Source: Promethearchaeota archaeon (lineage in GTDB: Archaea; Asgardarchaeota; Lokiarchaeia; Sigyniarchaeales; SOKP01). Taken from it: DNA of 12,079 nucleotides. The translations under genes and the position numbers were made by a program. Positions within the stretch are counted from its first letter, which is position 1; every line of letters starts with the position of its first letter. The stretch lies in assembly GCA_019057795.1 (NCBI GenBank), contig JAHLWS010000083.1, positions 1 to 12,079 of the forward strand, written 5' to 3'. The notes beneath the pieces were generated by a model. That model did no database searches. It had not been told where the DNA came from and saw only the letters and a list, made by a program, of their open reading frames with translations. Shown here piece after piece: positions 1 through 12,079 of the stretch.

Positions 1-156
1 AGTATTGGTATGAGTATTGCAATGAAGTATAAGGTTGAAAAGCTGTATTATCTTCAATTGTGGGGTCGAGAATATCAAAATCAACCATATATTAAGATTC
101 CTTTAACAAATCAGAAATTAATAAACATTATGGAGTTAACACTTAAACATGGCTAA
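1..156 (+). CDS. 3' end of a probable small CARF-like (Rossmann-fold) protein, 5'-truncated by the window edge
   Basis: Frame 1 is open from base 1 to TAA at 154-156 (SIGMSIAMKYKVEKLYYLQLWGREYQNQPYIKIPLTNQKLINIMELTLKHG*) and overlaps the next ATG by 8 nt. The small-residue helix followed by a 'KLYYL' strand resembles the segment after the D-x-T-x-G-x-K motif of CARF folds. The diagnostic motif itself lies outside the window, so the family call is inference. Confidence 0.5.
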   Translation, partial: SIGMSIAMKYKVEKLYYLQLWGREYQNQPYIKIPLTNQKLINIMELTLKHG

Positions 157-1213
157 TAGAATTTCAGAGTTTGTTTTAAAGCTAGAAGAATTACCAATAC
201 TTTTAAATGTTCTATATTTAAAAGCTAACGATTGGTTTCATATTTACCCATATATAATAGAAGAGAACACTTTCAGTGTCACTTTAGAAAAGATAGTAAA
301 AATAACTAGGCTAATAAACAAATCTAGATATCAAGAAATAATAACCGAAAAACAACTATCAGATTTTCCAAATATAGTACCAAAATTTGAAGTTTTACGA
401 GGAATCTTAATTGCCTCTGGATTCTTGAAGATGAAGAACTGGTCAACTATTCTGGAAGAATTAGAAAAAATAAAATTAATCGATCCATTGAAAGGAGAAC
501 GGCAGGCTTTCATTGGGTTGGATACTAATTGTTTCATAGATAGAATTTATTCTGTGTTAAAACATTCCTATAAAACAGATATTTCAAATTTTTATTTCGT
601 ACTATCAAGAATAATTAGAAACGAATTAATGTCAATGAGAACCATATCTAACACGCAATTAGACGATCTTAGAGAGAGATATACAAAAAATCATGAGATC
701 TTTAAAGAATTTTGGAACGGAGACAATCTTTATACGCGAACTCGTCATCTTGGTTTAGTAGAATTTAATAAATTAAGAAAACAATCTAAATGTTTAATTA
801 ATGATGGTCTAGACATAAATGAATCGAGAGAATTTGATTATCAAATAATCGAGGATTTTAGAAATCAAATATTAAAGCAAGGATATAATTTGCTCCTCTT
901 AAGTTCTGATAAGCAATTTGCTGACCAAGCACGACAATCAGGTATTAATAGCATATATCTTGAAAGACTACCGCTGGAAGATATGCCAAGGCAATTCTCT
1001 GGAACTTGGTCCATGTTATGTGATTTTCTTTATCTTAATAGCGTATATTTTGGAGCAATACATCTTGTTTGTAAAAAATATAAAATAAAAATGTTTGGAA
1101 TATGGAGAGGCAAAGGAGCAACAGAATGGGATTCTGAATCAGTAAAAATCTGGATAGGAAGTGAAAAGCTCTCAAACTTACTCGACCAACAACTAACTAT
1201 TGTAAGGACATGA
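149..1213 (+). CDS. PIN-domain ribonuclease with N- and C-terminal extensions (354 aa)
   Basis: Canonical PIN acidic tetrad: FIGLDTN (D125), RNEL (E159), EFDYQII (D230), LLSSDKQF (D254). Confidence 0.85.
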   Translation: MANRISEFVLKLEELPILLNVLYLKANDWFHIYPYIIEENTFSVTLEKIVKITRLINKSRYQEIITEKQLSDFPNIVPKFEVLRGILIASGFLKMKNWSTILEELEKIKLIDPLKGERQAFIGLDTNCFIDRIYSVLKHSYKTDISNFYFVLSRIIRNELMSMRTISNTQLDDLRERYTKNHEIFKEFWNGDNLYTRTRHLGLVEFNKLRKQSKCLINDGLDINESREFDYQIIEDFRNQILKQGYNLLLLSSDKQFADQARQSGINSIYLERLPLEDMPRQFSGTWSMLCDFLYLNSVYFGAIHLVCKKYKIKMFGIWRGKGATEWDSESVKIWIGSEKLSNLLDQQLTIVRT

Positions 1214-1269
1214 ATAAGTATTTATCGTTTGATGTTTGCCTAAATGAAGATCAATCATAATAATTTCAA

Positions 1270-1289
1270 ATAAGGAATGACTTCCTTAT
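1270..1289. terminator. Perfect 8-bp hairpin between convergent genes, possibly a bidirectional terminator or processing site
   Basis: ATAAGGAA-TGAC-TTCCTTAT lies in the 125-bp gap between the PIN stop (1213) and the cas7-insertion stop (1339). No long U-tract directly follows it. Confidence 0.4.
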
Positions 1290-1338
1290 GACTAAAATTT
1301 TACAATCCATTCCTAAATAATACTTTCATAATTAATTA

Positions 1339-3414
1339 TTATATTTTTTCAATGTTTTGAGCCTCTAAACCTTTCTCCCCTTTTCCAAGAACAAATTCGA
1401 CTTTATCTCCTTTATTTAACAGCTTATTACCAAAAATATTTTTGGAGTTCATGTATACATCTTTTCCTCCAATATCTGGAATGATAAATCCATAACCTGA
1501 TTTTTCGTTATAAAATTTTACTGTTCCCTTTAAAATATCTCCAATATTGGCATTTTTTCTATTTTTATTCTGATTCTGCCTGTCTTTATCGTATTTAAAC
1601 AATTTAGGATTATTTAGGTCAGTAGGTATTGATTGGTGGATAATGTGCTTAAATGGGCTTCCAGGAGATATTGCACGATTCGACATAAACCATTCGTAAT
1701 TAAGATCGCTCCCAACATTAGATGGGTATTCAACATTAGATGGTGCTTTCTCAAAATTGGTTATTTTCATGTACATCGATAGAACTTTTGGATCACATCC
1801 TAAGAGTTCGGCTGCATCTGCATTTTGAAAGGTCCTAGTCTCATCTCGAATTGTTGCCGAATCTACAATTTCGTAATTTATGGCATCATCATATAACGAT
1901 ATTTTCCTAACTTTAATATTATCTACTATAATCTTGACGCTACCGAGCCCTAGTGGTTTTCCCATCCCAATTTTATGAGCATTTTCCTCGTTATTCCCTA
2001 TCTCTAACGTCCAAATCAATTTCTTTAATTCTTCTTCTTTAACATTGTTAAAATACACCTTGAATATAAAATTATTATTTGATCGTAGAGCCCGTATCCC
2101 TACATTACGATCTGATCTTTCTAGAGTGCGGGGAATTTCGCTTATTTTATGATGCCAGTAGAATTTTCGTCCGCTAATCTCCGCCTTATATCGTCTAAAC
2201 GGGACAAGATCTTTTTTGTAAAAACCGGCGTAATCGTAATTCCATATTTGAGCCTTTATCCCATCTTCTTGACTTGGTTTTAATAAATAAAACTCTGTCG
2301 ACGATAATTTGGGTGAAGCAAGTTCCTTCAATACCTCGGCAACAAAATAATCTTCTGCACTAAACTCTTTTGTTGATATAGCTGGCGTAAATCGAACTCT
2401 TGAGGCGAGTTGGTCGTTTTTGCTTGTAAATCCAAATAAAATACATGCAGGGCATAACTGTTTAAGTGAAGAACAAGGTACGTAATCTTTAATGATGGTT
2501 GTTAAATTACTATAGAATACTTCCCTACCAATCTCAGCAAGGTTTAAATATATTTTTGAGTTATATGATTTGTAATATACTAAAGCTCCATCCAAATCGT
2601 TAATCTTGTTCGCTTTTATTCTTCTGTATCCAGTGTGTTCCTTTTTCTTAAATGCTAAATTAACCGTCTTATCATTATATAACCTAAAATTAACTAGGAG
2701 ATTCTCTACGGCCTTCTCTTCAATATCGATTTGTGGCTTATTAAGATTTTCGACGAATATAGATTCATTTGCCTTTCTATCGATATCTTCTCCGTGGTGA
2801 AAGTATCCTTTTATCTCATTATCATCAAATCCCGTAAAATATCTATCATGGTTTGCTCTAAAGCGAATTTCCTGCCCTTCTTCAAAATTTGATATCTCCC
2901 GTTTATATCTAAACTTATCCATTTTATACTTAATACAGGGTATTATCTTCCATCTACCATCTTTTGTGTGAATAACTTTTCCAGGATCTCCCGGTTTAGT
3001 TACTCGTTTATATAATTTTTTTTCGTGATCTATCGCTGATAAGCACGAATTTGTGAGCAATTCAAAAGAGCTGCGAATCATCCCTCTTAATTCACTTGAA
3101 GGAATCACGGGATTTTTAGGTGGTAATGGCTTATCATCGCTAATGTTTCGAAGATCTTCGTTCGAATAGAATTCAAGGCTATTTATTTGTTCTCCTTTGT
3201 CAGTTTTTAGATTAAATCGATTTACGTTAGATGTATTGGGTATGAATATTGGGCTTTTTGTTAAAAGAGTACATTCAATCCATCCCGTTAATAAATCTTT
3301 TTCATTCTTCAAATTTTCGAAGATGTGGTTTTTATAGCAATTTTTTTCTAAAGGAATAAAAACATAAGGATTTACGAACGTTTCTTTAGATTTGACTATT
3401 ACTTTTTTACCCAT
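1339..3414 (-). CDS. cas7: Type III-D Cas7-family RAMP with large insertion (TIGR03986-like), fused to a C-terminal cold-shock domain
   Basis: FVNPYVFIPL; LTGWIECTLLTKSPIFIP; PVIPSSELRGMIRSSFELLTNSC; zinc-type CxxxxxxCPACILFG; LASPKLS; GRKFYWH; glycine loop KIGMGKPLGLGSV. Last gene of the effector operon, with SD GGAGGTG at 3421-3427. Confidence 0.93.
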   Translation of the reverse strand: MGKKVIVKSKETFVNPYVFIPLEKNCYKNHIFENLKNEKDLLTGWIECTLLTKSPIFIPNTSNVNRFNLKTDKGEQINSLEFYSNEDLRNISDDKPLPPKNPVIPSSELRGMIRSSFELLTNSCLSAIDHEKKLYKRVTKPGDPGKVIHTKDGRWKIIPCIKYKMDKFRYKREISNFEEGQEIRFRANHDRYFTGFDDNEIKGYFHHGEDIDRKANESIFVENLNKPQIDIEEKAVENLLVNFRLYNDKTVNLAFKKKEHTGYRRIKANKINDLDGALVYYKSYNSKIYLNLAEIGREVFYSNLTTIIKDYVPCSSLKQLCPACILFGFTSKNDQLASRVRFTPAISTKEFSAEDYFVAEVLKELASPKLSSTEFYLLKPSQEDGIKAQIWNYDYAGFYKKDLVPFRRYKAEISGRKFYWHHKISEIPRTLERSDRNVGIRALRSNNNFIFKVYFNNVKEEELKKLIWTLEIGNNEENAHKIGMGKPLGLGSVKIIVDNIKVRKISLYDDAINYEIVDSATIRDETRTFQNADAAELLGCDPKVLSMYMKITNFEKAPSNVEYPSNVGSDLNYEWFMSNRAISPGSPFKHIIHQSIPTDLNNPKLFKYDKDRQNQNKNRKNANIGDILKGTVKFYNEKSGYGFIIPDIGGKDVYMNSKNIFGNKLLNKGDKVEFVLGKGEKGLEAQNIEKI
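1342..1536 (-). other. CspA-like cold-shock (OB-fold) domain at the C-terminus of the Cas7-insertion protein
   Basis: ILKGTVKFYNEKSGYGFIIPDIGGKDVYMNSKNI...LNKGDKVEF...GEKGLEAQNI matches the CspA pattern (GTVKWFN, RNP1 GYGFI, RNP2-like DVYMN, GxKVEF, KGxxAxNV). It is in frame with the RAMP through a polar linker (KDRQNQNKNRKNAN). Confidence 0.92.
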
Positions 3415-3961
3415 TTATTACACCTCCATTATTATTCAAAATTTGTACAAGACGGGCGTCGTAAAACTTAATCATACCACCCTTATCAAAATTGAAATAA
3501 TTTCGAACTTTAAATTGGATTGGTAAAGGTTCGTTGTTTATATCTCGAGGAAAACGGATTTTCATGCCTCGATGTTCTTCTATAAGTTCGTTTTTGTTCT
3601 CAATACTGACTTTCGTACCCCACATGATATGGGTTTCTTCGTAAACATTTATGTCTCCTTCTACTTCATCATCGATTCGTAACCTCCACTTGAAATCACC
3701 TCCATACTTCCATAAATGAAGCTCTCCGCTCACTGAAAACATTCTTATTTCTGTTACATAATCTAAGGTAAAATGCTCGTCTCCTAAAACATTAATTTCA
3801 TTATTCACAATTGAGCCAATATATACTTGGTTGTATTTAAAAACAATTAAAAAACAATTCCCACCGAGCTTTTCTTCACATTTTTCCAAGAGAAACTTCT
3901 TTAAATCTTTACCTTCTTCGTAATTTTCTTTTATTTCAATAGATTTAATTGTCCTTATCAT
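3407..3961 (-). CDS. csx19: Type III-D signature subunit Csx19
   Basis: 184 aa; motifs EIRMFSVSGELHLWK, WRLR, IMWGT, VRNY and terminal DARLV; positioned between cas7-cas7 and cas7-insertion as in III-D operons; SD GGGAGGAG at 3972-3979; 8-nt overlap with the next gene. Confidence 0.9.
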   Translation of the reverse strand: MIRTIKSIEIKENYEEGKDLKKFLLEKCEEKLGGNCFLIVFKYNQVYIGSIVNNEINVLGDEHFTLDYVTEIRMFSVSGELHLWKYGGDFKWRLRIDDEVEGDINVYEETHIMWGTKVSIENKNELIEEHRGMKIRFPRDINNEPLPIQFKVRNYFNFDKGGMIKFYDARLVQILNNNGGVING

Positions 3962-3980
3962 AATTTTTTAACTCCTCCCA

Positions 3981-5363
3981 CTACACTAATTCATCTGCTA
4001 ATGATTTGAAATATTTTTCAAAAATATCATTGAAATCATTGTTAATATCTTTAATATCTTTAGTATCTTTAATATCATATTCCTCTGCGTTAAGTTTAAT
4101 CTTAACGCCTTCTAAAATACCCCGCCCAATATTGGAGCCTCCTCCAACAGATTGAAGCCCATGCCACAGTTCTTTAATACCCAATAAGACTATCCCTTTC
4201 TCATATTCTTCAGCATCATTTATCCAAATATTTAATTCGATATTACCGCCAAATGTTGCTTTTTCTGTGAAAAGTGCTGTATCTACGGCTCCACCAGTAA
4301 ATCTGTCAATTTTGTTACGTGTATAATTAAGAGGTATACTTTTATCAATAACGCTTTCATTAATAAAAAGTCTTGATTTTTGGGCACGAAGATCGTAATT
4401 AGGCTCTTTTTCTCTCGTTTTCGCATATCCGAAAAGAGGCTCCATAATTTTTTTAACTTGCTCGATTTTATCGAGCTCTCGAGCAACCTGGATTATTGCA
4501 TTTCTTAATGCGCCAACCCATGAAGTGCCAGAAACAACAGGTTCACCGTTCGAACTCAAATGCGCTACATCTTCTTCTGATGGGTCCGGGTTGGGAGCTC
4601 TAATCAACAATGAATGTGGAATTTTGAATTTTACACTTATATGAGTTTTGTTTTGAATCGTTTTAAGAGAGTTTGTTAAATTATTAAGCTGAATATTTCC
4701 CTCTTTAAAAGCCTCCCAGTCAAAGTTCAGCCAATTATCCCGATCTTCTGCTTTATCCATTAAATTAAGTTTCAATATTTTTATGTCAATTAACTCTAAT
4801 TCTCCAAAACCACGAGCAGTTTTTGCCCCTATGCGAATGTTTCCATTAGTAAATCCTTCTAACACTAAGAAAAGTATATTTTCGAATTTTGAAACCATTT
4901 CATCGTTGTCTTTATCTTTATTGCCCCGAATTGTCAATTCAATTCTAAATCGACAAGAAGCTCCTGGTTCCATTATTTCATAATTATATTTTGCAGTATT
5001 TTTAGCAGTTTTCGTGAAATAGTCGATTGCAACTCCATCTCTAATGTTTACAACACATTTTTCAATATTATCTCCATCGTAAAATGTAATTAAACTTTGC
5101 CTAGATTCTTTTTCTCTTTCTCCAAAAATTTGTCGAATTAATTCGTGTTCTCGATCTTTATCTTCCTCGAGAATTGAATCAAGATAATGTCTCGTTGGTC
5201 CAGCAATACCAGAAGCGGGAATAAAAACTTTATCGTACCAATCCCTACTTATGTCTTTATCTGAATTTGATTCTTCACCACAACCAAGAACTAAGGGAGA
5301 TTTAAATATTAACTTCCCCTTCACGTAATATTTATAAATAACTACATCTTCTATATCACTCAA
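3981..5363 (-). CDS. cas7: Cas7-Cas7 (double Csm3-like RAMP) fusion
   Basis: Two RAMP repeats. First: SPLVLGCG...SDKD...FIPASGIAG...IFG...IRDGVAID...IGAKTARGFG. Second: SLLI...EEDV...VSGTSWVGALR...LFG...TRNKIDRFTGG...VGGGSNIGRG. TTG start with SD GAGGTG at 5371-5376. Confidence 0.92.
   Translation of the reverse strand: MSDIEDVVIYKYYVKGKLIFKSPLVLGCGEESNSDKDISRDWYDKVFIPASGIAGPTRHYLDSILEEDKDREHELIRQIFGEREKESRQSLITFYDGDNIEKCVVNIRDGVAIDYFTKTAKNTAKYNYEIMEPGASCRFRIELTIRGNKDKDNDEMVSKFENILFLVLEGFTNGNIRIGAKTARGFGELELIDIKILKLNLMDKAEDRDNWLNFDWEAFKEGNIQLNNLTNSLKTIQNKTHISVKFKIPHSLLIRAPNPDPSEEDVAHLSSNGEPVVSGTSWVGALRNAIIQVARELDKIEQVKKIMEPLFGYAKTREKEPNYDLRAQKSRLFINESVIDKSIPLNYTRNKIDRFTGGAVDTALFTEKATFGGNIELNIWINDAEEYEKGIVLLGIKELWHGLQSVGGGSNIGRGILEGVKIKLNAEEYDIKDTKDIKDINNDFNDIFEKYFKSLADELV
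4042..4077. repeat. In-frame 9-bp tandem repeat (4 copies of TTAATATCT) encoding DIKDTKDIKDI
   Basis: ttaatatct ttaatatct ttagtatct ttaatatca read directly from the sequence. Confidence 0.85.
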
Positions 5364-7617
5364 TCTTTCTCACCTCTCGAGTCTTGAGAATTAAATTTGT
5401 AATAAATGAACTGCAATAAATATTATAAAGTTCTGTAGTTTTTCTGGAATAATACTTAGTGATTTCAAGATCTTCAAATATCTTAGCAACTTCTGTATTT
5501 TTAAAGGAATCAAAATCGACTTGATCGTTTGAGAGTTTTTTTAATAATTTATTGAAATCTTCTTCATTTACTTTCTTGTTCTTTATATATAGCTCCTTTT
5601 CAACCTTTTTTAACTGATTTAGGGCATTATCTTTTAAGTGTTCTAATTTTTTATTAAATTCATTAATGGAATTCGATGATTTTATAAAAATAAACAACCG
5701 TTGTAGAAAAGAACCCGAAACCTTAATGCGATTATACTTAGGACTGTTAATTATATCAAATACTTTCTTGTTTATAGTGGATTTTAAAGATTCCATTAAG
5801 CAAAATTCTATAAATTCCCTAAGTAAATTAATATTTTTTAAAAGTAGGACGTCTCTACTAGTTTTTTTTTCGAGATTTACTTTTTCGATATGAGAAAACC
5901 CATGTGTATTAACAGACACTTGCCCATATCCTTCTGAAGTTCTCAAGCCAAAAGCGAATTTATCCAATTTTCCAATGTTAAATTTTTGACCATCCTTTCT
6001 TTTTAAGACAATTACTGATCCTGCTGCTAGGGCTTGCCCTTGAATCTTAGGTAACCCCCATGTTGTATTATATCCTCCAACTTTTGTGAATTTCAAATAC
6101 GAATTTTGTATATCCGTTTCGTTTATATTAATTCCAAGTGCTTTTTCGATCTCTTCTATCAGAATTTCAGGATCTGGAGTTAAATGTCCACCATCGTTTG
6201 TTAAAATCATATCAGATGTTAATGTTATAACCAACTGATCAGTACCAATGTTTTGAATTATCCTTTCATATTTTTCAACAGATTTTACTTCAAGAAGACA
6301 TTTACCATATTGAGCGGTTTTAGATTTCCCTACATATATAACCAACTCTTTAGGAAGTATCTCAATTATATTTCTTAAATCCTTGAATTTTCCAATAATT
6401 TGACCTTTGAAATCAAAGTTAGGTTCTAACACATCGTAGTGAAAATAAGCACCAGTAATATCAACTGGCTGGCCTTCACTTTTAATAGCATGTCCTATTT
6501 TACGATCTCTAGGTCTTCTATTATGACTTTCGATTTTCGTCGATGGTATAAAATTTTGCATCATAGAAGAGTTAATATTAGAAAATCCACCGAATAGCTC
6601 CGTTTGGATGCCTTTTTCTCTATCCATTACTATCTCCAAGTCAGGTTCATATGAAAGATCAAAATACCTTTCTTTTCCTTTTTCTCTTACTATAGAGAAA
6701 GGGACTGGATGAAAAATATTGCCATCTACACTCGGATAGAAATTAGTGAAGTTAACTTTACCAGAGAGAAATATGTTTCGAAATTCTGGATTAGTATGTG
6801 CATTGGTGCTTAGACTTTTCTCTTTGATATAAATTCTCGCTAGTGCTCCAAGTATATAACTACCCCTTATAAACAATTCGCTTGTTTGTTGACCGTTTAT
6901 TAAATTAGACACTAAAAGTTGTTCTTCATTCGTGAGGTTAAGGTTAATTACGCAGTCGTCTTCATCACCAAACGCTTTTAATTCCACTTTATCGCTAGAG
7001 TTATTTTGAATCTGTTGATCAATTACTTCTAAACTAATTTCACCTAATCCTCTTGTTCTTGAACTGCCGAAATTTTTAGTAATATTACAAATCTTTTTAA
7101 AATCCTCTTTAAATTTATTAAACTCATTAACTTCATCGATATCAACATCTATATTGAAATGAAATTTTAAATCTTTCCTTAAAACGCGTGAAATTCTTAA
7201 TGAATTTTCTTTTGATACAAATTTTTTCCTCATCACAGAAGTTTGTGTTCTATTATAAGAAAAATATTTTTGAACTGAGTGTTTATCATAGATTTTTGAT
7301 AATTTAGAGTATTCTTGACAAAAGTTTAGAAAATCACGAAAAATTTTGTATTTCCCCATGGTTCCATTTGAAATCCTAAAAATCGTCTTCGAAGCACCCT
7401 CAGCGCCAAAAATTTTATCAATTTCATTGTTATTTAACATTTTCCAATCTGCTAAATCTCTTGCTGAGCTTATTATAATACCTTTTATCCTTTTGGCAGG
7501 AACTTCAGGTAATCCAAATTTGTCAAATAAGACGTCTCTATCAACAATACCAGCTTCACTTTCTCCCGATCCCGGTAAAGCATCGGATAACAATTCTAAG
7601 GTTAATTTTAATTTCAT
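5356..7617 (-). CDS. csx10: Cas7-Cas5-Cas11 fusion (Csx10-like RAMP with N-terminal Cas7 and C-terminal helical small-subunit domain)
   Basis: N-terminal Cas7: LLSDALPGSG...VDRD...GLPEVPAKRIKG...IFG...FGSSRTRGLG. Central Csx10/Cas5 part: FIRGSYILGALA, FYP...PVPFS, VGKSKTAQYG, VGGYN, AAGSV, GLRTSEGYGQV. The last ~160 aa are helical and charged, and the Cas11 call for them is inferred from position. ATGA overlap with cas10; SD GGAGGAG at 7626-7632. Confidence 0.88.
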   Translation of the reverse strand: MKLKLTLELLSDALPGSGESEAGIVDRDVLFDKFGLPEVPAKRIKGIIISSARDLADWKMLNNNEIDKIFGAEGASKTIFRISNGTMGKYKIFRDFLNFCQEYSKLSKIYDKHSVQKYFSYNRTQTSVMRKKFVSKENSLRISRVLRKDLKFHFNIDVDIDEVNEFNKFKEDFKKICNITKNFGSSRTRGLGEISLEVIDQQIQNNSSDKVELKAFGDEDDCVINLNLTNEEQLLVSNLINGQQTSELFIRGSYILGALARIYIKEKSLSTNAHTNPEFRNIFLSGKVNFTNFYPSVDGNIFHPVPFSIVREKGKERYFDLSYEPDLEIVMDREKGIQTELFGGFSNINSSMMQNFIPSTKIESHNRRPRDRKIGHAIKSEGQPVDITGAYFHYDVLEPNFDFKGQIIGKFKDLRNIIEILPKELVIYVGKSKTAQYGKCLLEVKSVEKYERIIQNIGTDQLVITLTSDMILTNDGGHLTPDPEILIEEIEKALGININETDIQNSYLKFTKVGGYNTTWGLPKIQGQALAAGSVIVLKRKDGQKFNIGKLDKFAFGLRTSEGYGQVSVNTHGFSHIEKVNLEKKTSRDVLLLKNINLLREFIEFCLMESLKSTINKKVFDIINSPKYNRIKVSGSFLQRLFIFIKSSNSINEFNKKLEHLKDNALNQLKKVEKELYIKNKKVNEEDFNKLLKKLSNDQVDFDSFKNTEVAKIFEDLEITKYYSRKTTELYNIYCSSFITNLILKTREVRKIE

Positions 7618-9236
7618 TTTAATATCTCCTCCATTTGTGGTAAATAATAATCTAATAATTCTAAAGCATCAAAATACGGAGTCATATTTTCATGGAATAT
7701 TTTAACGATATTTTGAAATGGAGGAAGTTTAACTTCTCTACTATCCATTCTTAATAGGAAATGATCCACTTCTTCTTTGGAGGCAGTAAGGAGTTGCTGT
7801 AATTTCTTTATTTTAGACCTTGGCCATTTATCTGCGGCACTAATAAATCCTTGAATTAAGCTTTTGAGATTTATCCATGAATACTTATCAGGTAAATTGG
7901 AATCCCCAACAACGGCCCATGGTCGCCATAGTAAATTATTTTGTTTGTAAATCATTTCTTTAGTTTTTAATTCTTTAGGAAGAGGAATTCCCTGAATTCT
8001 ATATTGAGTTTTTCTCGTTTCACTCAAATCTGACGTAAAACCAGATTGAATGACATGAAAATCAAGCCAAAAACCTCTATTAGAAAGATTATTTTTCTCT
8101 TGAATAATTTTACCTTTTTTTTTCGCTGATTTACAGAGTTCTTCTGCCATGGTATAGGCTCTATCAAACGGAAAAGTCGTTTTTACAATCGCAACTCCTG
8201 CGCTGGCAGAATGTGGGATAATTTTACCAAGAATCTTAATTTCTAACTTAGAAAGCTTTTTTAGAAATAAAGCAGCTAAATTTATTCCTAATTTTCCATT
8301 GGTTATGAAAGTAATATCATCTCCTTTTAAGATTATTGGTCTTATAGGTAATTTTACTTTAGAATTTTCATATTTCAGGTCAAAATTCTTTTTAAATTCA
8401 TTATTTTCCAATGAATTTATTAAATTTTTAATAACTTGTTTAAGTGCTTCTTTATAAATTTCGTTAAGTCTCCTCGAAAATTCACTCATTCTGTAGAGCG
8501 ACAATTCGTAATCTTTAATGGACTCATTTAACAATTCATGTATCGTTTTACCTACATTATCTCCATCAATATGAACGATAGAAATATAATTCTCTCCAGT
8601 TTTTTGCCCTAAATCCTCCAATCTCAAAGGAAATTCGTAATTGTGAAAACCTTTTAATAAATCTTTAAAATGATTTTTATCATTATTATCTCTTTTTCTT
8701 TTTGTAGGTAGCGAAAGATATTCGTCATTTTCTTTAAATTGAACGGGTAAACCACTGCTCAATTCAGCTTTTGTTATTCCAATTCCTAATAGGGGGGTTG
8801 TCTTGACGAAGGAATTCTTTTTCTTTACAAGTTTTTTAAATATGTTGTTATAATCCAGACTAAAGTTATTCAAAAAAGTTTTTTCATAGGCTACGTTAAA
8901 GCTAAGTAGCCCCCCAGAGAGTTCTAAAACTTTTTCTGACAATTTTTTAGTTATTTCTTTTGCTTTATCTTTGTCTTTAAAAACAATTAAGGCATTTCCG
9001 CCCCCCAAATATACGATTACCGCTTCATGCTCGGCCCAATTTATTCCTTCTCTTTTAATTGCTTCTAAAGTATTAGTACACTCTAATTTGATATATTTCT
9101 TTAACAAATCTTCAGAAGCATTTTCAACGATTATCGAGCCTCCTAAATTTTCTTTTAACCGGTTTGTCGAAAAAATAAAGTTTTGAATTCCGGTTATATC
9201 ATATATTGCAAGTGTTTTTTCCTCACTCATGATCAT
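7614..9236 (-). CDS. cas10: Cas10 large subunit, type III-D, lacking the HD nuclease domain; Palm2 motif KGDD
   Basis: Begins directly with AIYDITGIQNFIF...LKENLGGS; Palm1 VYLGGGNA; Palm2 IVHIDGDNVG and RPIILKGDDITF; SAGVAIV...PFDRAYTMAEELCKSAK; WLDFH. Only 540 aa. The real start may be the second ATG (9230). Confidence 0.95.
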   Translation of the reverse strand: MIMSEEKTLAIYDITGIQNFIFSTNRLKENLGGSIIVENASEDLLKKYIKLECTNTLEAIKREGINWAEHEAVIVYLGGGNALIVFKDKDKAKEITKKLSEKVLELSGGLLSFNVAYEKTFLNNFSLDYNNIFKKLVKKKNSFVKTTPLLGIGITKAELSSGLPVQFKENDEYLSLPTKRKRDNNDKNHFKDLLKGFHNYEFPLRLEDLGQKTGENYISIVHIDGDNVGKTIHELLNESIKDYELSLYRMSEFSRRLNEIYKEALKQVIKNLINSLENNEFKKNFDLKYENSKVKLPIRPIILKGDDITFITNGKLGINLAALFLKKLSKLEIKILGKIIPHSASAGVAIVKTTFPFDRAYTMAEELCKSAKKKGKIIQEKNNLSNRGFWLDFHVIQSGFTSDLSETRKTQYRIQGIPLPKELKTKEMIYKQNNLLWRPWAVVGDSNLPDKYSWINLKSLIQGFISAADKWPRSKIKKLQQLLTASKEEVDHFLLRMDSREVKLPPFQNIVKIFHENMTPYFDALELLDYYLPQMEEILK

Positions 9237-9440
9237 TCCTTCTAATTAATTCTTTTCCTTAAAAGCTTAAGATTAATTTGACTTCTTATCAATTTAACTT
9301 TTTTAACGGATAAAAAATCATTCTTAATTGGATATTGTCAAAAATATATATGTAATAATCTTTCTTTAATTACTTAAAAATGTTTTTTTTGATTTTTTTT
9401 CGCTCACGAATAATATATTATCTCCCTCATATTTAAATGT

Positions 9441-9518
9441 ATCTCATTGCTATGTGGGAAACCACATAATGCTTTTATCCTATAACGCACTGCTTTGTGA
9501 GATCGCTTCATAATAGCA
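9441..9518. other. Two adjacent stem-loops in the cas6-cas10 intergenic region (candidate structured RNA or solitary repeat-like element)
   Basis: TATGTGG-GAAA-CCACATA (9451-9468) is a perfect 7-bp stem. TGCT-TTGTGA-N7-TCATAA-T-AGCA (9491-9518) is an imperfect stem with one G-U pair on the plus strand. Function is unknown. Confidence 0.45.
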
Positions 9519-9647
9519 AAAACGTTTTAAATACTAAACAAAAGCTCTTAAGATCGCACTCCCTAAATAATTGATCTATAAAAGATTAATATATTAGCTA
9601 CACAAACACACAATAATATGAGAAAATAATTCTATATTCTTCTATTT

Positions 9648-10475
9648 TTATGCAACAGAAAGTATAAAATTATGACCAAATCCTCTGGTAGTACGAGAAC
9701 CTATTCCAGTATATTCTGATAAATAAAGAATTTTCCACATAATTGATTTTTCAAGAGGATTCCCACCGATCTTAAAAGTAATATTACCAATTCTACCTTT
9801 ATATGATATTACTTCGCTTTTGTTTTCTTTATTAGTGAGATAGCCTGTGGATTCACGAGTATAATCTTGAACTATTATTAAATAGGGATATAACTGAGTA
9901 GGTTCCAGGTTTACGATCCCTAACTGTTTAAATTTCTCACATTGGAAGTTTAGGAAGGCTTCAATTGTAAAATTTTCCAATCTTTTTTCTTGAGCGTAAT
10001 AGAAAAAAGTTGGAGTTTCCAATCTCACTGTAACTGTATTGAGGGGATCAGGAATTTCATTTAAATTGCCTTCATGAATATTGAGTCTTTCAATAATTAC
10101 ATTTAGTGCATCAATTTTAAAAAGTTTATTTTGTACAGTGTAACTTTTTATTAATCTTCCAATTTCAGGGTCGATTGTTTTTATAAAAAAGTGCCCTCTT
10201 TCTCCCTTTTTAACTTTAACAAATCCTTTTATTTCAGATTTGGGCTGTTTTCTCTCGAAAGTAAGGTAAGAATACGTCCATGGTCTCACAGTTGTAGATA
10301 GATGAATTTTTCGAGAAAATTGGGGGTCCATTTCAAAAAGTAGATTATAGATGGCACCGTAAATTTTTGAATGATTTCTTAATGGAATTTGAGCGTCTTT
10401 CTTAGCAACAACTGAAAATTTACATTTGAGAAGCGTAATATTTCTTCTCATCTTTATTCTATTATTATCTTGCAT
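9648..10475 (-). CDS. cas6: CRISPR-associated endoribonuclease Cas6
   Basis: IYGAIYNLL...FSRKIH...RPWTYS; LETPTFF; YKGRIG; C-terminal glycine-rich loop YTGIGSRTTRGFG. The start could be the internal Met (MRRNITLL). Confidence 0.93.
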   Translation of the reverse strand: MQDNNRIKMRRNITLLKCKFSVVAKKDAQIPLRNHSKIYGAIYNLLFEMDPQFSRKIHLSTTVRPWTYSYLTFERKQPKSEIKGFVKVKKGERGHFFIKTIDPEIGRLIKSYTVQNKLFKIDALNVIIERLNIHEGNLNEIPDPLNTVTVRLETPTFFYYAQEKRLENFTIEAFLNFQCEKFKQLGIVNLEPTQLYPYLIIVQDYTRESTGYLTNKENKSEVISYKGRIGNITFKIGGNPLEKSIMWKILYLSEYTGIGSRTTRGFGHNFILSVA

Positions 10476-10557
10476 GTTATGTGCTATTTCTCTTGTTTAA
10501 TCATTAGCGATAGGAACGATTCGATTTAAATTATTTAAATGGATATCATTACTTAGC

Positions 10558-10596
10558 CTATTATCTATTATCTATTATTTATTATCTATTATCTAT
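10558..10596. repeat. 7-bp tandem repeat (CTATTAT, about 5.5 copies)
   Basis: ctattat ctattat ctattat ttattat ctattat ctat; it includes the TAG stop of the CARF gene (10593-10595). Confidence 0.9.
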
Positions 10597-11270
10597 ATTA
10601 CTGTGTGATTCAAATCTAAACCTTTATCTTCAAATATTTTATTTGTTATCCTAAGAGGGTTTTGAATTGTTTTATAAACTTCCGTTCCTGGCACTGGCCG
10701 TCTTAATTCTCTATCAAATTTCTCATGATCTATATATAAAATATCTGGACCATCAGGCCCTAAAGCAAGTGCGGCTATACCACATGCTACACTCATAATC
10801 TTTGTCCCTCCAGTTATATCCAAACCAATTTTACTAATATCTATTCTCTTTTCTTTATTTAAATATAATAGACCTAATCCTATAAGGTCTATGGAATTTT
10901 TAAATGAATTTTTTTTCATAATTTCACGCTTACATTGAATAAATTTTAGTCCAGTTTCATCAATAATTTTATTCAAAGTTACCTCAGATTCTTTAGTATA
11001 AATAAAAAATACGCCCGTTGGATTATTTACTAAGATATTTAAAATTATAGGTTCATGTGAAAACCCTACTGTAAAAATTAATCCATCATACTTTTTAAAA
11101 GAATTTTTTGACCTGGCACTCAATACAAATTTCTTTTTGCTTAGATTCCATATCTCGTCCATAAGAGAATCTGTATCCTCATTCTGTTTCTTTAATCTTT
11201 TTAGTTCAATATATTTATTCTCGAGTTTTGAGTTTAAATCTTTAATAACTTCTTTATTCTCTATTGTCAT
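10593..11270 (-). CDS. Stand-alone CARF-domain protein (TIGR02710-like CARF without effector domain); possible ring nuclease, sensor, or truncated effector
   Basis: GLIFTVGFSHEPIILNI, FFIYTKES, LDITGGTKIMSVA, YID...RRPVPGTE...NP. About 55 aa of helical N-terminal extension; the protein ends about 20 aa after the CARF fold. Confidence 0.85.
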   Translation of the reverse strand: MTIENKEVIKDLNSKLENKYIELKRLKKQNEDTDSLMDEIWNLSKKKFVLSARSKNSFKKYDGLIFTVGFSHEPIILNILVNNPTGVFFIYTKESEVTLNKIIDETGLKFIQCKREIMKKNSFKNSIDLIGLGLLYLNKEKRIDISKIGLDITGGTKIMSVACGIAALALGPDGPDILYIDHEKFDRELRRPVPGTEVYKTIQNPLRITNKIFEDKGLDLNHTVI

Positions 11271-11300
11271 TTTTTAGGTTTTTGCATTTTAATTTTTTTT

Positions 11301-11310
11301 AAATATATAA
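11301..11310 (-). promoter_or_regulatory. Possible archaeal-type TATA box for the CARF gene
   Basis: TTATATATTT on the minus strand 31-40 nt upstream of the ATG at 11270, with no SD motif. The region is very AT-rich, so support is weak. Confidence 0.25.
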
Positions 11311-11507
11311 CATATTATGCGTGAAAATTTTTAAATAATTTATGAGTGTTTAAATTTTTAACTTATAAAACTACTTCATAATTAATTAATTTATATTTAT
11401 TTACAGAAATTTTACTAACTAAGTAAAAAATTAACTACTAACTTGTTCGTTAAAACCTAACAAATAAAGAATAGGAATATTGTTAAAAATTAAATTTGAT
11501 TTTTGAT

Positions 11508-12077
11508 TTAAATCCAGATTATTTTTCTCCCACTGAAATAACAACGCCTAAGGTTATATTCTGTGCTTAGATTTAAGAGAGCGATAGAAACCGGTTTTGT
11601 ACCACCTGTTATCTCACATACAATTTCGTAATTTTTGATCTCTTCTTTTAAAATCTTTTCTAACTCTTCATAAATTTGCTGATAATTTTCTCTTAGAACT
11701 TTTTGATAATCGAATTCTCTCACAACAGTTTCAATTTCTTCGTATTTGCTTTTATCTAATTTTCTAAACTCCTCGTGGTAATCTGGGCTTGTAAATAACA
11801 CGTATTTTCTCGGGAGGATACTAATCTCTTCAAAAGCTGCGAGAATGTCATTGAACAGCGTAGGAATTCCTAACCCACCAATAAGGCAAATTGGAACAGT
11901 TTTTTTATAATAGTTCCTTAATGGCTGTCTTGCGACTCCGTTTAACATATAAGACCCTCTATCCGTTTTTTCTAGCATACCATCTTTTACTAATCTTTTA
12001 AGATGATGATCCGCGCGTTTTGACATGTTTTTATTAATAAGATAACTACTAATTTCATTGAATTCGTAAATTTCTTT
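11508..12077 (-). CDS. Winged-HTH plus C-terminal CARF protein, putative ligand-responsive transcription regulator; probably 5'-truncated by the window edge
   Basis: The frame stays open upstream of the ORF-track Met at 12026 to the window end (KEIYEFNEISSYLINKN-MSK). HHLKRLVKDGMLEKTDRGSYML is a typical wHTH recognition helix and wing. CLIGGLG, YVLFTS and CEITGGTKPVSIAL are CARF motifs. Confidence 0.8.
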   Translation of the reverse strand, partial: KEIYEFNEISSYLINKNMSKRADHHLKRLVKDGMLEKTDRGSYMLNGVARQPLRNYYKKTVPICLIGGLGIPTLFNDILAAFEEISILPRKYVLFTSPDYHEEFRKLDKSKYEEIETVVREFDYQKVLRENYQQIYEELEKILKEEIKNYEIVCEITGGTKPVSIALLNLSTEYNLRRCYFSGRKIIWI

Positions 12078-12079
12078 GC

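Follow-up and report, generated by a model that had tools for sequence, protein, structure and literature searches.

We analysed the whole of contig JAHLWS010000083.1 (C83), a stretch of 12,079 nt hereafter called the window, which belongs to a metagenome-assembled genome (MAG; 4.95 Mb, 87 contigs, 7.5% contamination) of a Loki-type Asgard archaeon. It carries an operon for a subtype III-Dv CRISPR effector complex, together with CARF-domain genes and a gene for a PIN-domain protein. The locus is a recurring variant of a known immune system, and its notable feature is a putative alarm-triggered RNase encoded as two genes. Asgard archaea are the closest archaeal relatives of eukaryotes. The sources of homologues of the PIN, Cas10 and Cas7-insertion proteins of the window include records named Promethearchaeota, Promethearchaeia, Helarchaeota and Loki's Castle sediment metagenome.

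Gene calling with six-frame open reading frames (ORFs) and four profile libraries revealed one gene pair on the plus strand and one row of genes on the minus strand, the latter transcribed in the order wHTH-CARF (wHTH, winged helix-turn-helix), CARF-only, Cas6, Cas10, Cas7-Cas5-Cas11, Cas7-2x, Csx19 and Cas7-insertion with a cold-shock domain. In the following list and below, C3, C19, C29, C68, C77 and C83 are contigs of the source MAG, and L-numbers denote fetched loci.

1-156, plus strand: 3' end (last 51 codons and stop) of a gene for a CARF_m1 sensor of ~165 aa, recognised from the homologue L022:83-580; the rest is off the contig
149-1213, plus strand: PIN-domain subunit of a split CARF-PIN effector, 354 aa (PADLOC CARF_m1--CARF_PIN)
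1339-3414, minus strand: Cas7-insertion (TIGR03986 RAMP, 691 aa) with a C-terminal cold-shock domain (TIGR03986, PADLOC, PF00313)
1342-1533, minus strand: cold-shock domain of Cas7-insertion, residues 628-691 (PF00313, E 3.6e-14)
3407-3961, minus strand: Csx19, III-D small subunit, 184 aa (TIGR03984, E 1.9e-24, above cut-off; PADLOC Csx19, E 5e-28)
3981-5363, minus strand: Cas7-2x, two fused Cas7/RAMP domains, 460 aa (PF03787, PADLOC, 8s9t)
5356-7617, minus strand: Cas7-Cas5(Csx10)-Cas11-type fusion subunit, 753 aa (PADLOC Cas5_IIId, 8s9t)
7614-9236, minus strand: Cas10, 540 aa, HD-less, presumed cyclase (PADLOC Cas10d, E 2e-132; 8s9t chain C, E 2.4e-18)
9648-10475, minus strand: Cas6 CRISPR RNA (crRNA)-processing endoribonuclease, 275 aa (PF21350 and PF10040, above cut-off)
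10593-11270, minus strand: CARF-only protein, 225 aa (PADLOC CARF1--CARF_HEPN, CARF part only, E 1e-27)
11508-12079, minus strand: wHTH-CARF (CARF_m5), cut by the contig end (PADLOC CARF_m5--CARF, E 1e-41)
Contig C3, outside the window, divergent from wHTH-CARF across a 361-bp gap: Crn2/AcrIII-1 (STIV B116-like, DUF1874), 113 aa (PF08960)
Contig C3, past Crn2: CRISPR array in which a 30-nt repeat occurs at least 16 times

All elements of the inventory drawn up in the original prediction (an HD-less Cas10, a III-Dv complex armed with a cold-shock domain, CARF modules and a PIN protein) were thus found, together with Cas6, which it had not named. It had also reported the absence of a fused nuclease of the Csm6/Csx1 type, of cas1, of cas2 and of an array; indeed no CRISPR array, cas1, cas2 or HEPN nuclease lies within the 12-kb window, the 30-nt repeat of the genome has no copy there even with up to 3 mismatches allowed, and scans for Rfam families and tRNAs found none in it.

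Judged by its sequence, the minus-strand row contains a complete III-Dv effector operon of five subunits, accompanied by Cas6: the Cas7-Cas5-Cas11 fusion, Cas7-2x, Csx19 and Cas7-insertion are encoded with Cas10. This assignment follows from family matches above cut-off and from matches to chains A, C, D and E of the III-Dv complex of Synechocystis sp. PCC 6803 (8s9t; PMC11026444), which shares the five-subunit fusion architecture, HD-less Cas10 included, and four of whose chains are matched by the corresponding window subunits. Cas7-insertion is recognised by TIGR03986 (E 2e-70, above cut-off) and PADLOC Cas7_IIId (E 1e-142) and matches chain E as well as CspA-type structures. In Cas7-2x, PF03787 is found in two stretches (E 6e-35), and the protein matches PADLOC Cas7_IIId (E 1e-115) and chain D, itself named 'Cas7-2x' (E 4e-15). 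The large fusion subunit is covered from residue 4 to 748 by PADLOC Cas5_IIId (E 9e-156) and matches chain A, 'Cas7-Cas5-Cas11' (E 1.5e-8); its putative Cas11 part is suggested by the collinearity of the whole protein with that PADLOC model. For Csx19, the PDB offered no sequence match. The locus differs from that of Synechocystis in its archaeal host, in the C-terminal cold-shock domain of Cas7-insertion, in the set of accessory genes and in the Palm2 motifs of Cas10 (KGDD and HIDGD here, GGDD and HADGN in Synechocystis). The Cas6 proteins of contig C29 and of the Loki's Castle locus L023 share 53% and 49% identity, respectively, with that of the window. The 410-bp gap between cas6 and cas10 (9237-9647) holds a small hairpin on the minus strand (at ~9441-9479); as a candidate repeat it was rejected, being by eye unlike both CRISPR repeats of the genome.

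The fusion of Cas7-insertion with a cold-shock domain also occurs in L023, L048 and L049, and the domain is present in ~15 of the best 120 Cas7-insertion homologues, the five named sources of such proteins being Asgard, archaeal or sediment-metagenome records. No account of a cold-shock domain on a Cas7 subunit was found in the literature searched. In L049, from a Promethearchaeota MAG, one III-Dv operon contains two such genes in tandem (708 and 722 aa; L049:10001-14384).

No HD family was matched by Cas10, whose matches start at the Palm1 region, as expected of an HD-less III-Dv protein. Its Palm2 region carries HIDGD followed by KGDD, i.e. both aspartates are kept and the first glycine of GGDD is replaced. 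The Loki's Castle copy (L023), 74% identical, has the same motifs, and KGDD is common to the whole clade down to this level of identity. Among the 120 best homologues (31-100% identity), 117 have xGDD (NGDD 60, KGDD 16, GGDD 15, SGDD 12, AGDD 6, EGDD 4, DGDD 3, IGDD 1), while the remaining three have KGDE, NGDE and NGDK. The sequence comparison thus establishes that the first glycine is not conserved in the HD-less Cas10 family and that KGDD is normal there; of the "atypical Cas10 (KGDD, no HD)" of the original prediction, the observations stand and the adjective does not. Conservation of GDD and of the upstream HxDG(D/N) within the family argues for selection on Cas10 catalysis.

At the left end of the window, the stop codon of the CARF_m1 gene overlaps the start codon of the PIN gene by 8 nt (ATGGCTAA). 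Only 1 of the 51 CARF_m1 residues in the window differs from the C-terminus of the protein encoded by L022:83-580, and the full CARF_m1 gene, available in L022 and L023, matches CARF_m1 models at E 1e-33 to 1e-39. The L022 protein matches PADLOC CARF_m1--CARF (E 1e-39) and positions 1-154 of the fused model CARF_m1--CARF_PIN, of which the PIN protein takes up positions 169-454 of 465 (E 8e-35). The PIN core (~residues 119-273) is flanked by N-terminal and C-terminal docking domains, and none of its acidic residues D125, E159, D236 and D254 varies among 21 homologues. The AlphaFold2 model of the protein, with a predicted local distance difference test (pLDDT) value of 90.5, gives Z 7-11 to PIN structures.

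The closest known counterpart of the pair is SiRe_0806 of Sulfolobus islandicus, a fused CARF-PIN protein whose PDB entry 9jxx is titled 'in complex with cA4' (cA4, cyclic tetra-adenylate); no paper on this protein was found in the literature searched. Residues 2-354 of the PIN model correspond to SiRe_0806 chain 149-414 (VIA-align, 9jxw/9jxx; Z 16.8, root-mean-square deviation 3.4 A, 249 residues), and the CARF_m1 profile matches SiRe_0806 73-134 through the TPGRK(F/Y)M motif, albeit at a weak E of 0.0085. Both systems thus have a CARF_m1 sensor with (D)xTPGRK(F/Y)M, and their linker, PIN and C-terminal domains are collinear, whereas the identity is ~17% and two genes are found here in place of one. 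The pair possesses the CARF_m1 sensor domain and the PIN domain with conserved acidic residues that mark CARF-PIN proteins, but on two ORFs and not on a single polypeptide. On the strength of these alignments and models, the pair can be described as a known single-chain CARF-PIN protein divided cleanly at the CARF/linker boundary.

A search of 5.8 billion clusters yielded ~20 PIN homologues, of which the full-length ones are all ~350 aa long and those with named sources all come from Asgard archaea or sediment metagenomes; an exact-sequence look-up of the PIN protein gave no match, and a match to AimR was discarded as weak and below the cut-off. In every locus fetched (L019/L023, L020, L021, L022, L027-L030) a gene for a CARF_m1 protein of 160-166 aa lies directly upstream of the PIN gene, the two overlapping by 8 nt, 4 nt or ~17 nt (L027, with an approximate start) or abutting, and this arrangement is kept with PIN identity down to 42%. 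When the structure of a complex between the window PIN and the L022 CARF_m1 protein was predicted, the ipSAE score was 0.82 in three runs, compared with 0.00 for the best of three controls; 58 of 80 solved complexes reach this mark, as do 2 of 110 mismatched pairs. At least 95% of the contacts agreed between runs, the partner pLDDT was at least 85, and the contacts join the first and last helix of PIN to CARF_m1 residues 20-26, 58-65 and 135-151. CARF_m1 and PIN are therefore predicted by modelling to bind each other. Sensor and nuclease are probably re-coupled and work as one enzyme, judging from three lines of evidence: the overlap of the genes, which is conserved, the existence of a fused homologue and the modelled interface.

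The original prediction had described a circuit divided over separate proteins, with its sensors uncoupled from its effectors. The division holds good in so far as the effector, signal removal and a probable regulator reside on separate proteins, but the uncoupling of sensor and PIN nuclease is not supported, in view of the overlapping genes, the fused homologue and the predicted binding. Since the window contains only one PIN gene, the "CARF-like next to PIN" and the "free PIN" that had been listed as separate items are the same two-gene module. Elsewhere in the genome, on contig C77 (35651-38247), a gene for a Csa3-like CARF protein (221 aa) is followed by one for a diverged CARF_m1 protein (284 aa), which overlaps a gene for a PIN-like protein (362 aa); this contig has no match to RAMP (PF03787) or Cas10 Palm2 (PF22335).

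Another component that points to cA4 is the CARF-only protein, which consists of an N-terminal helical hairpin and a CARF domain and ends at residue 225 without 6H or HEPN domains. Among its 334 relatives (E <=0.001), most of the best 150 are 440-520 aa long; the long relatives that were checked carry Csm6 6H and HEPN domains (PF09670), and the consensus of the alignment has RNxxxxAH at its end. With the family profile, Thermus thermophilus Csm6 (TtCsm6; 5fsh) was matched at E 2e-64, and TtCsm6 is also the best Foldseek match of the AlphaFold2 model (pLDDT 93.9; TMq ~0.7, 22-23% identity, hairpin and CARF covered). According to the titles of its PDB entries, there are TtCsm6 structures with A2>p, of a K137A mutant, and of a Y161A mutant that contains cA4 in intact form; the equivalent residues of the CARF-only protein, K157 and Y179, are invariant in the family. 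The protein thus shares with TtCsm6 (5fsh, 8jbb, 8jh1) the hairpin, the CARF fold and the K137/Y161 equivalents, but not the 6H and HEPN RNase domains with the C-terminal HEPN R-x4-6-H motif, and hence it cannot be a Csm6-type nuclease. No Csm6-type HEPN match was found in the genome. A fresh truncation pseudogene of Csx1/Csm6 was also considered and ruled out by the intact short orthologues on two contigs, L034 (228 aa, 54% identity) and L049 (227 aa, 51%); the latter gene is divergent from and adjoins a III-Dv operon with a Cas10 of just 39% identity. From sequence and modelled structure, the CARF-only protein probably binds and cleaves cA4; it is a candidate cA4 ring nuclease or buffer that would have shed its RNase.

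The Loki's Castle locus L023 carries instead a 449-aa paralogue (L023:474-1823), whose C-terminal half has no family match and includes, by eye, a roadblock/LC7-like stretch; it may be a CARF effector of unrecognised type. In L034, a gene for a MYG1/DHH-like phosphoesterase (L034:10844-11758) stands directly after the 228-aa orthologue, and its product is a possible trans partner of that protein.

Since the window is a whole contig, both its ends are assembly breaks. Its right end (C83:11956-12079) matches C3:7073-6950 at 99%, and the first 28 codons of wHTH-CARF lie on that contig (C3:6868-7071), giving a full protein of 217 aa with no further domains; a full-length copy is also encoded on C29. 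Like the Csa3-type regulators it combines CARF with a winged helix, but the wHTH comes first here, whereas it follows CARF in Csa3, and the family is PADLOC CARF_m5. The Crn2 protein of C3 scores 74 bits against PF08960 (cut-off 26; E 9e-21) and keeps the GH motif with the conserved histidine, aligned with AFV3-109 and STIV B116. It resembles the Crn2/AcrIII-1 ring nucleases, which are cA4-specific (10.1101/778746); here the gene is paired divergently with wHTH-CARF, an arrangement also seen in C29, L020 and L021. The reverse complement of the C3 repeat ends in ATTGAAAC, and arrays of the same repeat family flank L023, L027 and L031. The expectation that missing parts might lie just outside the truncated ends was borne out: the start of wHTH-CARF, Crn2 and an array are found on C3, and cas1 and cas4 on C29, so that the parts "missing" from the window reflect assembly breaks.

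C83 and C29 start at the same base and share 141 identical nt; C29 1-1236 is 93% identical to window 1-1236, i.e. to just past the PIN gene, and C29 13540-14114 is 96% identical to window 11505-12079 (wHTH-CARF). Between these flanks C29 contains a different, unfused III-D cassette. Its Cas10 (854 aa) bears GGDD along with zinc-finger cysteines, and the cassette also encodes several Csm3-type subunits, Csx10, Csm2, a Cas6 of its own and a PHP protein; Crn2, cas1 and cas4 follow past the right flank. A 51-nt remnant of a Cas6 3' end is present at C29:13441-13491. Hence the accessory genes do not belong exclusively to the III-Dv module. The pair looks like a cassette exchange or a strain polymorphism, and C83 and C29 are either paralogous loci within a single genome or alleles from two different strains. 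When the genome was compared with itself, the repeats that came up were all short and dispersed, and no long contig was duplicated. L032 shows a third arrangement, in which III-Dv genes (94% identity) are followed by PHP and then PIN (96% identity). A PHP-domain phosphoesterase gene adjoins several Asgard III-D loci (L011:1319-2224, from C29; L032:2572-3459; L048:10618-11586; L034:1308-2291), and the encoded enzyme might have the messenger or cyclic-phosphate products as its substrate. The genome also contains a type I-B system on C68 with its own 37-nt repeat, and the 6.8-kb contig C19 (L013), bounded by arrays of both repeat types, has a 1225-aa ORF without a PADLOC match (2092-5769).

Recurrence of the gene set in other genomes, on which the original prediction had proposed to test its hypothesis, was observed in L023, L048, L049 and other Asgard contigs. 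A single 27-kb contig from Loki's Castle (L023) unites a CARF1-family protein, Cas6, Cas10 (KGDD), fusions of 744 and 458 aa, Csx19, Cas7-insertion with a cold-shock domain, Cas4, arrays and the CARF_m1 and PIN pair, and L048 and L049 repeat the III-Dv operon with the cold-shock domain. The III-Dv Cas10 was not found in the 36 same-genus genomes searched; elsewhere in the order a single further genome has it, at 39% identity, and there is also a fragment. The PIN family was found in 2 of the 60 relatives searched. The distribution of Cas10 and PIN is patchy, as for a defence island.

Three pointers, namely the SiRe_0806-like sensor, the TtCsm6-like CARF and Crn2, lead us to consider it probable, though by no means certain, that the III-Dv locus is wired to a cyclic-oligoadenylate (cOA) pathway, with cA4 as the most probable messenger. 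The identities of the components are well supported; their activities we infer from sequence and models. In such a system, the crRNA-loaded III-Dv complex would bind a foreign transcript, and the cold-shock domain on the terminal Cas7-insertion subunit might help to capture or unwind it. Target-bound Cas10 would then make cA4, which would bind CARF_m1 seated on the N- and C-terminal helices of PIN, the two subunits forming a non-covalent SiRe_0806-type protein. CARF_m1 in its cA4-bound state would switch on the PIN RNase, leading to growth arrest, whereas Crn2 and the HEPN-less Csm6-type CARF protein would degrade or buffer cA4, and wHTH-CARF, encoded divergently from crn2, would couple the level of cA4 to transcription.

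Several points weigh against this scheme. The complex prediction used alignments that we made ourselves, took its CARF partner from L022 because the window has only the last 51 residues, and may owe something to the SiRe_0806 structure released in 2025 or to general knowledge of CARF and PIN proteins. ST0035, the only tested fused CARF-PIN protein found in the literature searched, showed weak binding of cA4 and no induction of RNase activity (PMC6546367); the effector activity proposed here for this CARF-PIN family is accordingly putative. The link to Crn2 and the array relies on a join of MAG contigs by a 124-nt overlap with one mismatch. The cold-shock domain may be dispensable, since it is decaying in L032, the closest relative (94% identical), and can thus be lost: there, in the region L032:2150-2430 (compared with window 1330-1640), a 68-nt insertion, which could be an intron or simple decay, splits the domain from Cas7-insertion, with a premature stop in the domain. 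Finally, the III-Dv complex of Synechocystis keeps GGDD, and its cOA production is stated to need study (PMC11026444); the messenger that the related III-D2 complex produces for a CorA effector is SAM-AMP (PMC13294483).

These last two facts also favour an explanation in which the III-Dv Cas10 is inactive or makes another messenger and III-Dv only cleaves RNA, while the CARF, PIN and Crn2 proteins serve the GGDD Cas10 of C29, around whose cassette the same accessory flanks (93-96% identical) are found. We regard this as unlikely, because selection on catalysis is implied by the conserved motifs of the Cas10 family, and because the CARF genes of L023 and L049 stand beside III-Dv, no second Cas10 being present on 22 kb of each of these contigs (27 and 36 kb long, respectively); no CorA is annotated among the genes of the window, L023 or L049. 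It is likewise improbable, in our judgement, that CARF_m1 and PIN form a dissociable pair of the toxin-antitoxin kind, in which CARF_m1 would hold PIN inactive until, on binding the signal, it let go or was titrated away; sensor and nuclease would then act in trans, in line with the original prediction. The small upstream gene overlapping the PIN gene does recall a VapBC operon, the split is conserved across the Loki and Hel lineages, and the second, diverged pair of C77 lies away from cas genes; however, the upstream gene encodes a CARF protein with neither an antitoxin fold nor the DNA-binding domain of a small VapB-type antitoxin, the pair is collinear with the single-chain CARF-PIN protein, which favours a permanent complex, and the predicted interface is extensive and confident. 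An artefact of assembly or binning, with contigs of several strains merged in one MAG, has very little to commend it: the 7.5% contamination, the identical 141-nt start of C83 and C29, which marks an assembly fork, and the absence of the upstream node from the bin would fit, but all genes of the window lie on one contig, and the same adjacencies recur in independent assemblies (L023, and L032 with III-Dv next to PIN).

Beyond the cA4 scheme preferred above, we tentatively suggest, as a speculation that may well prove wrong, that CARF_m1 is a free cA4 receptor, able to dock on or unlock a separate PIN RNase, the two making a two-component type III effector (at least two diverged copies of the pair exist in the genome), that RNA-sensing cassettes and signalling flanks are exchanged independently within one Asgard population, and that the cold-shock domain adds RNA capture.

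The known logic of type III immunity is unchanged by this locus. Most work on type III signalling has used proteins in which sensor and effector are fused, and a natural split of CARF and PIN would permit the dissection of allosteric activation with separate subunits. The split pair would also offer a tractable handle on PIN-type CRISPR effectors, which are barely characterised in the literature searched, and the two effector cassettes found between near-identical signalling genes look like a clear case of modular exchange in the defence islands of Asgard archaea.

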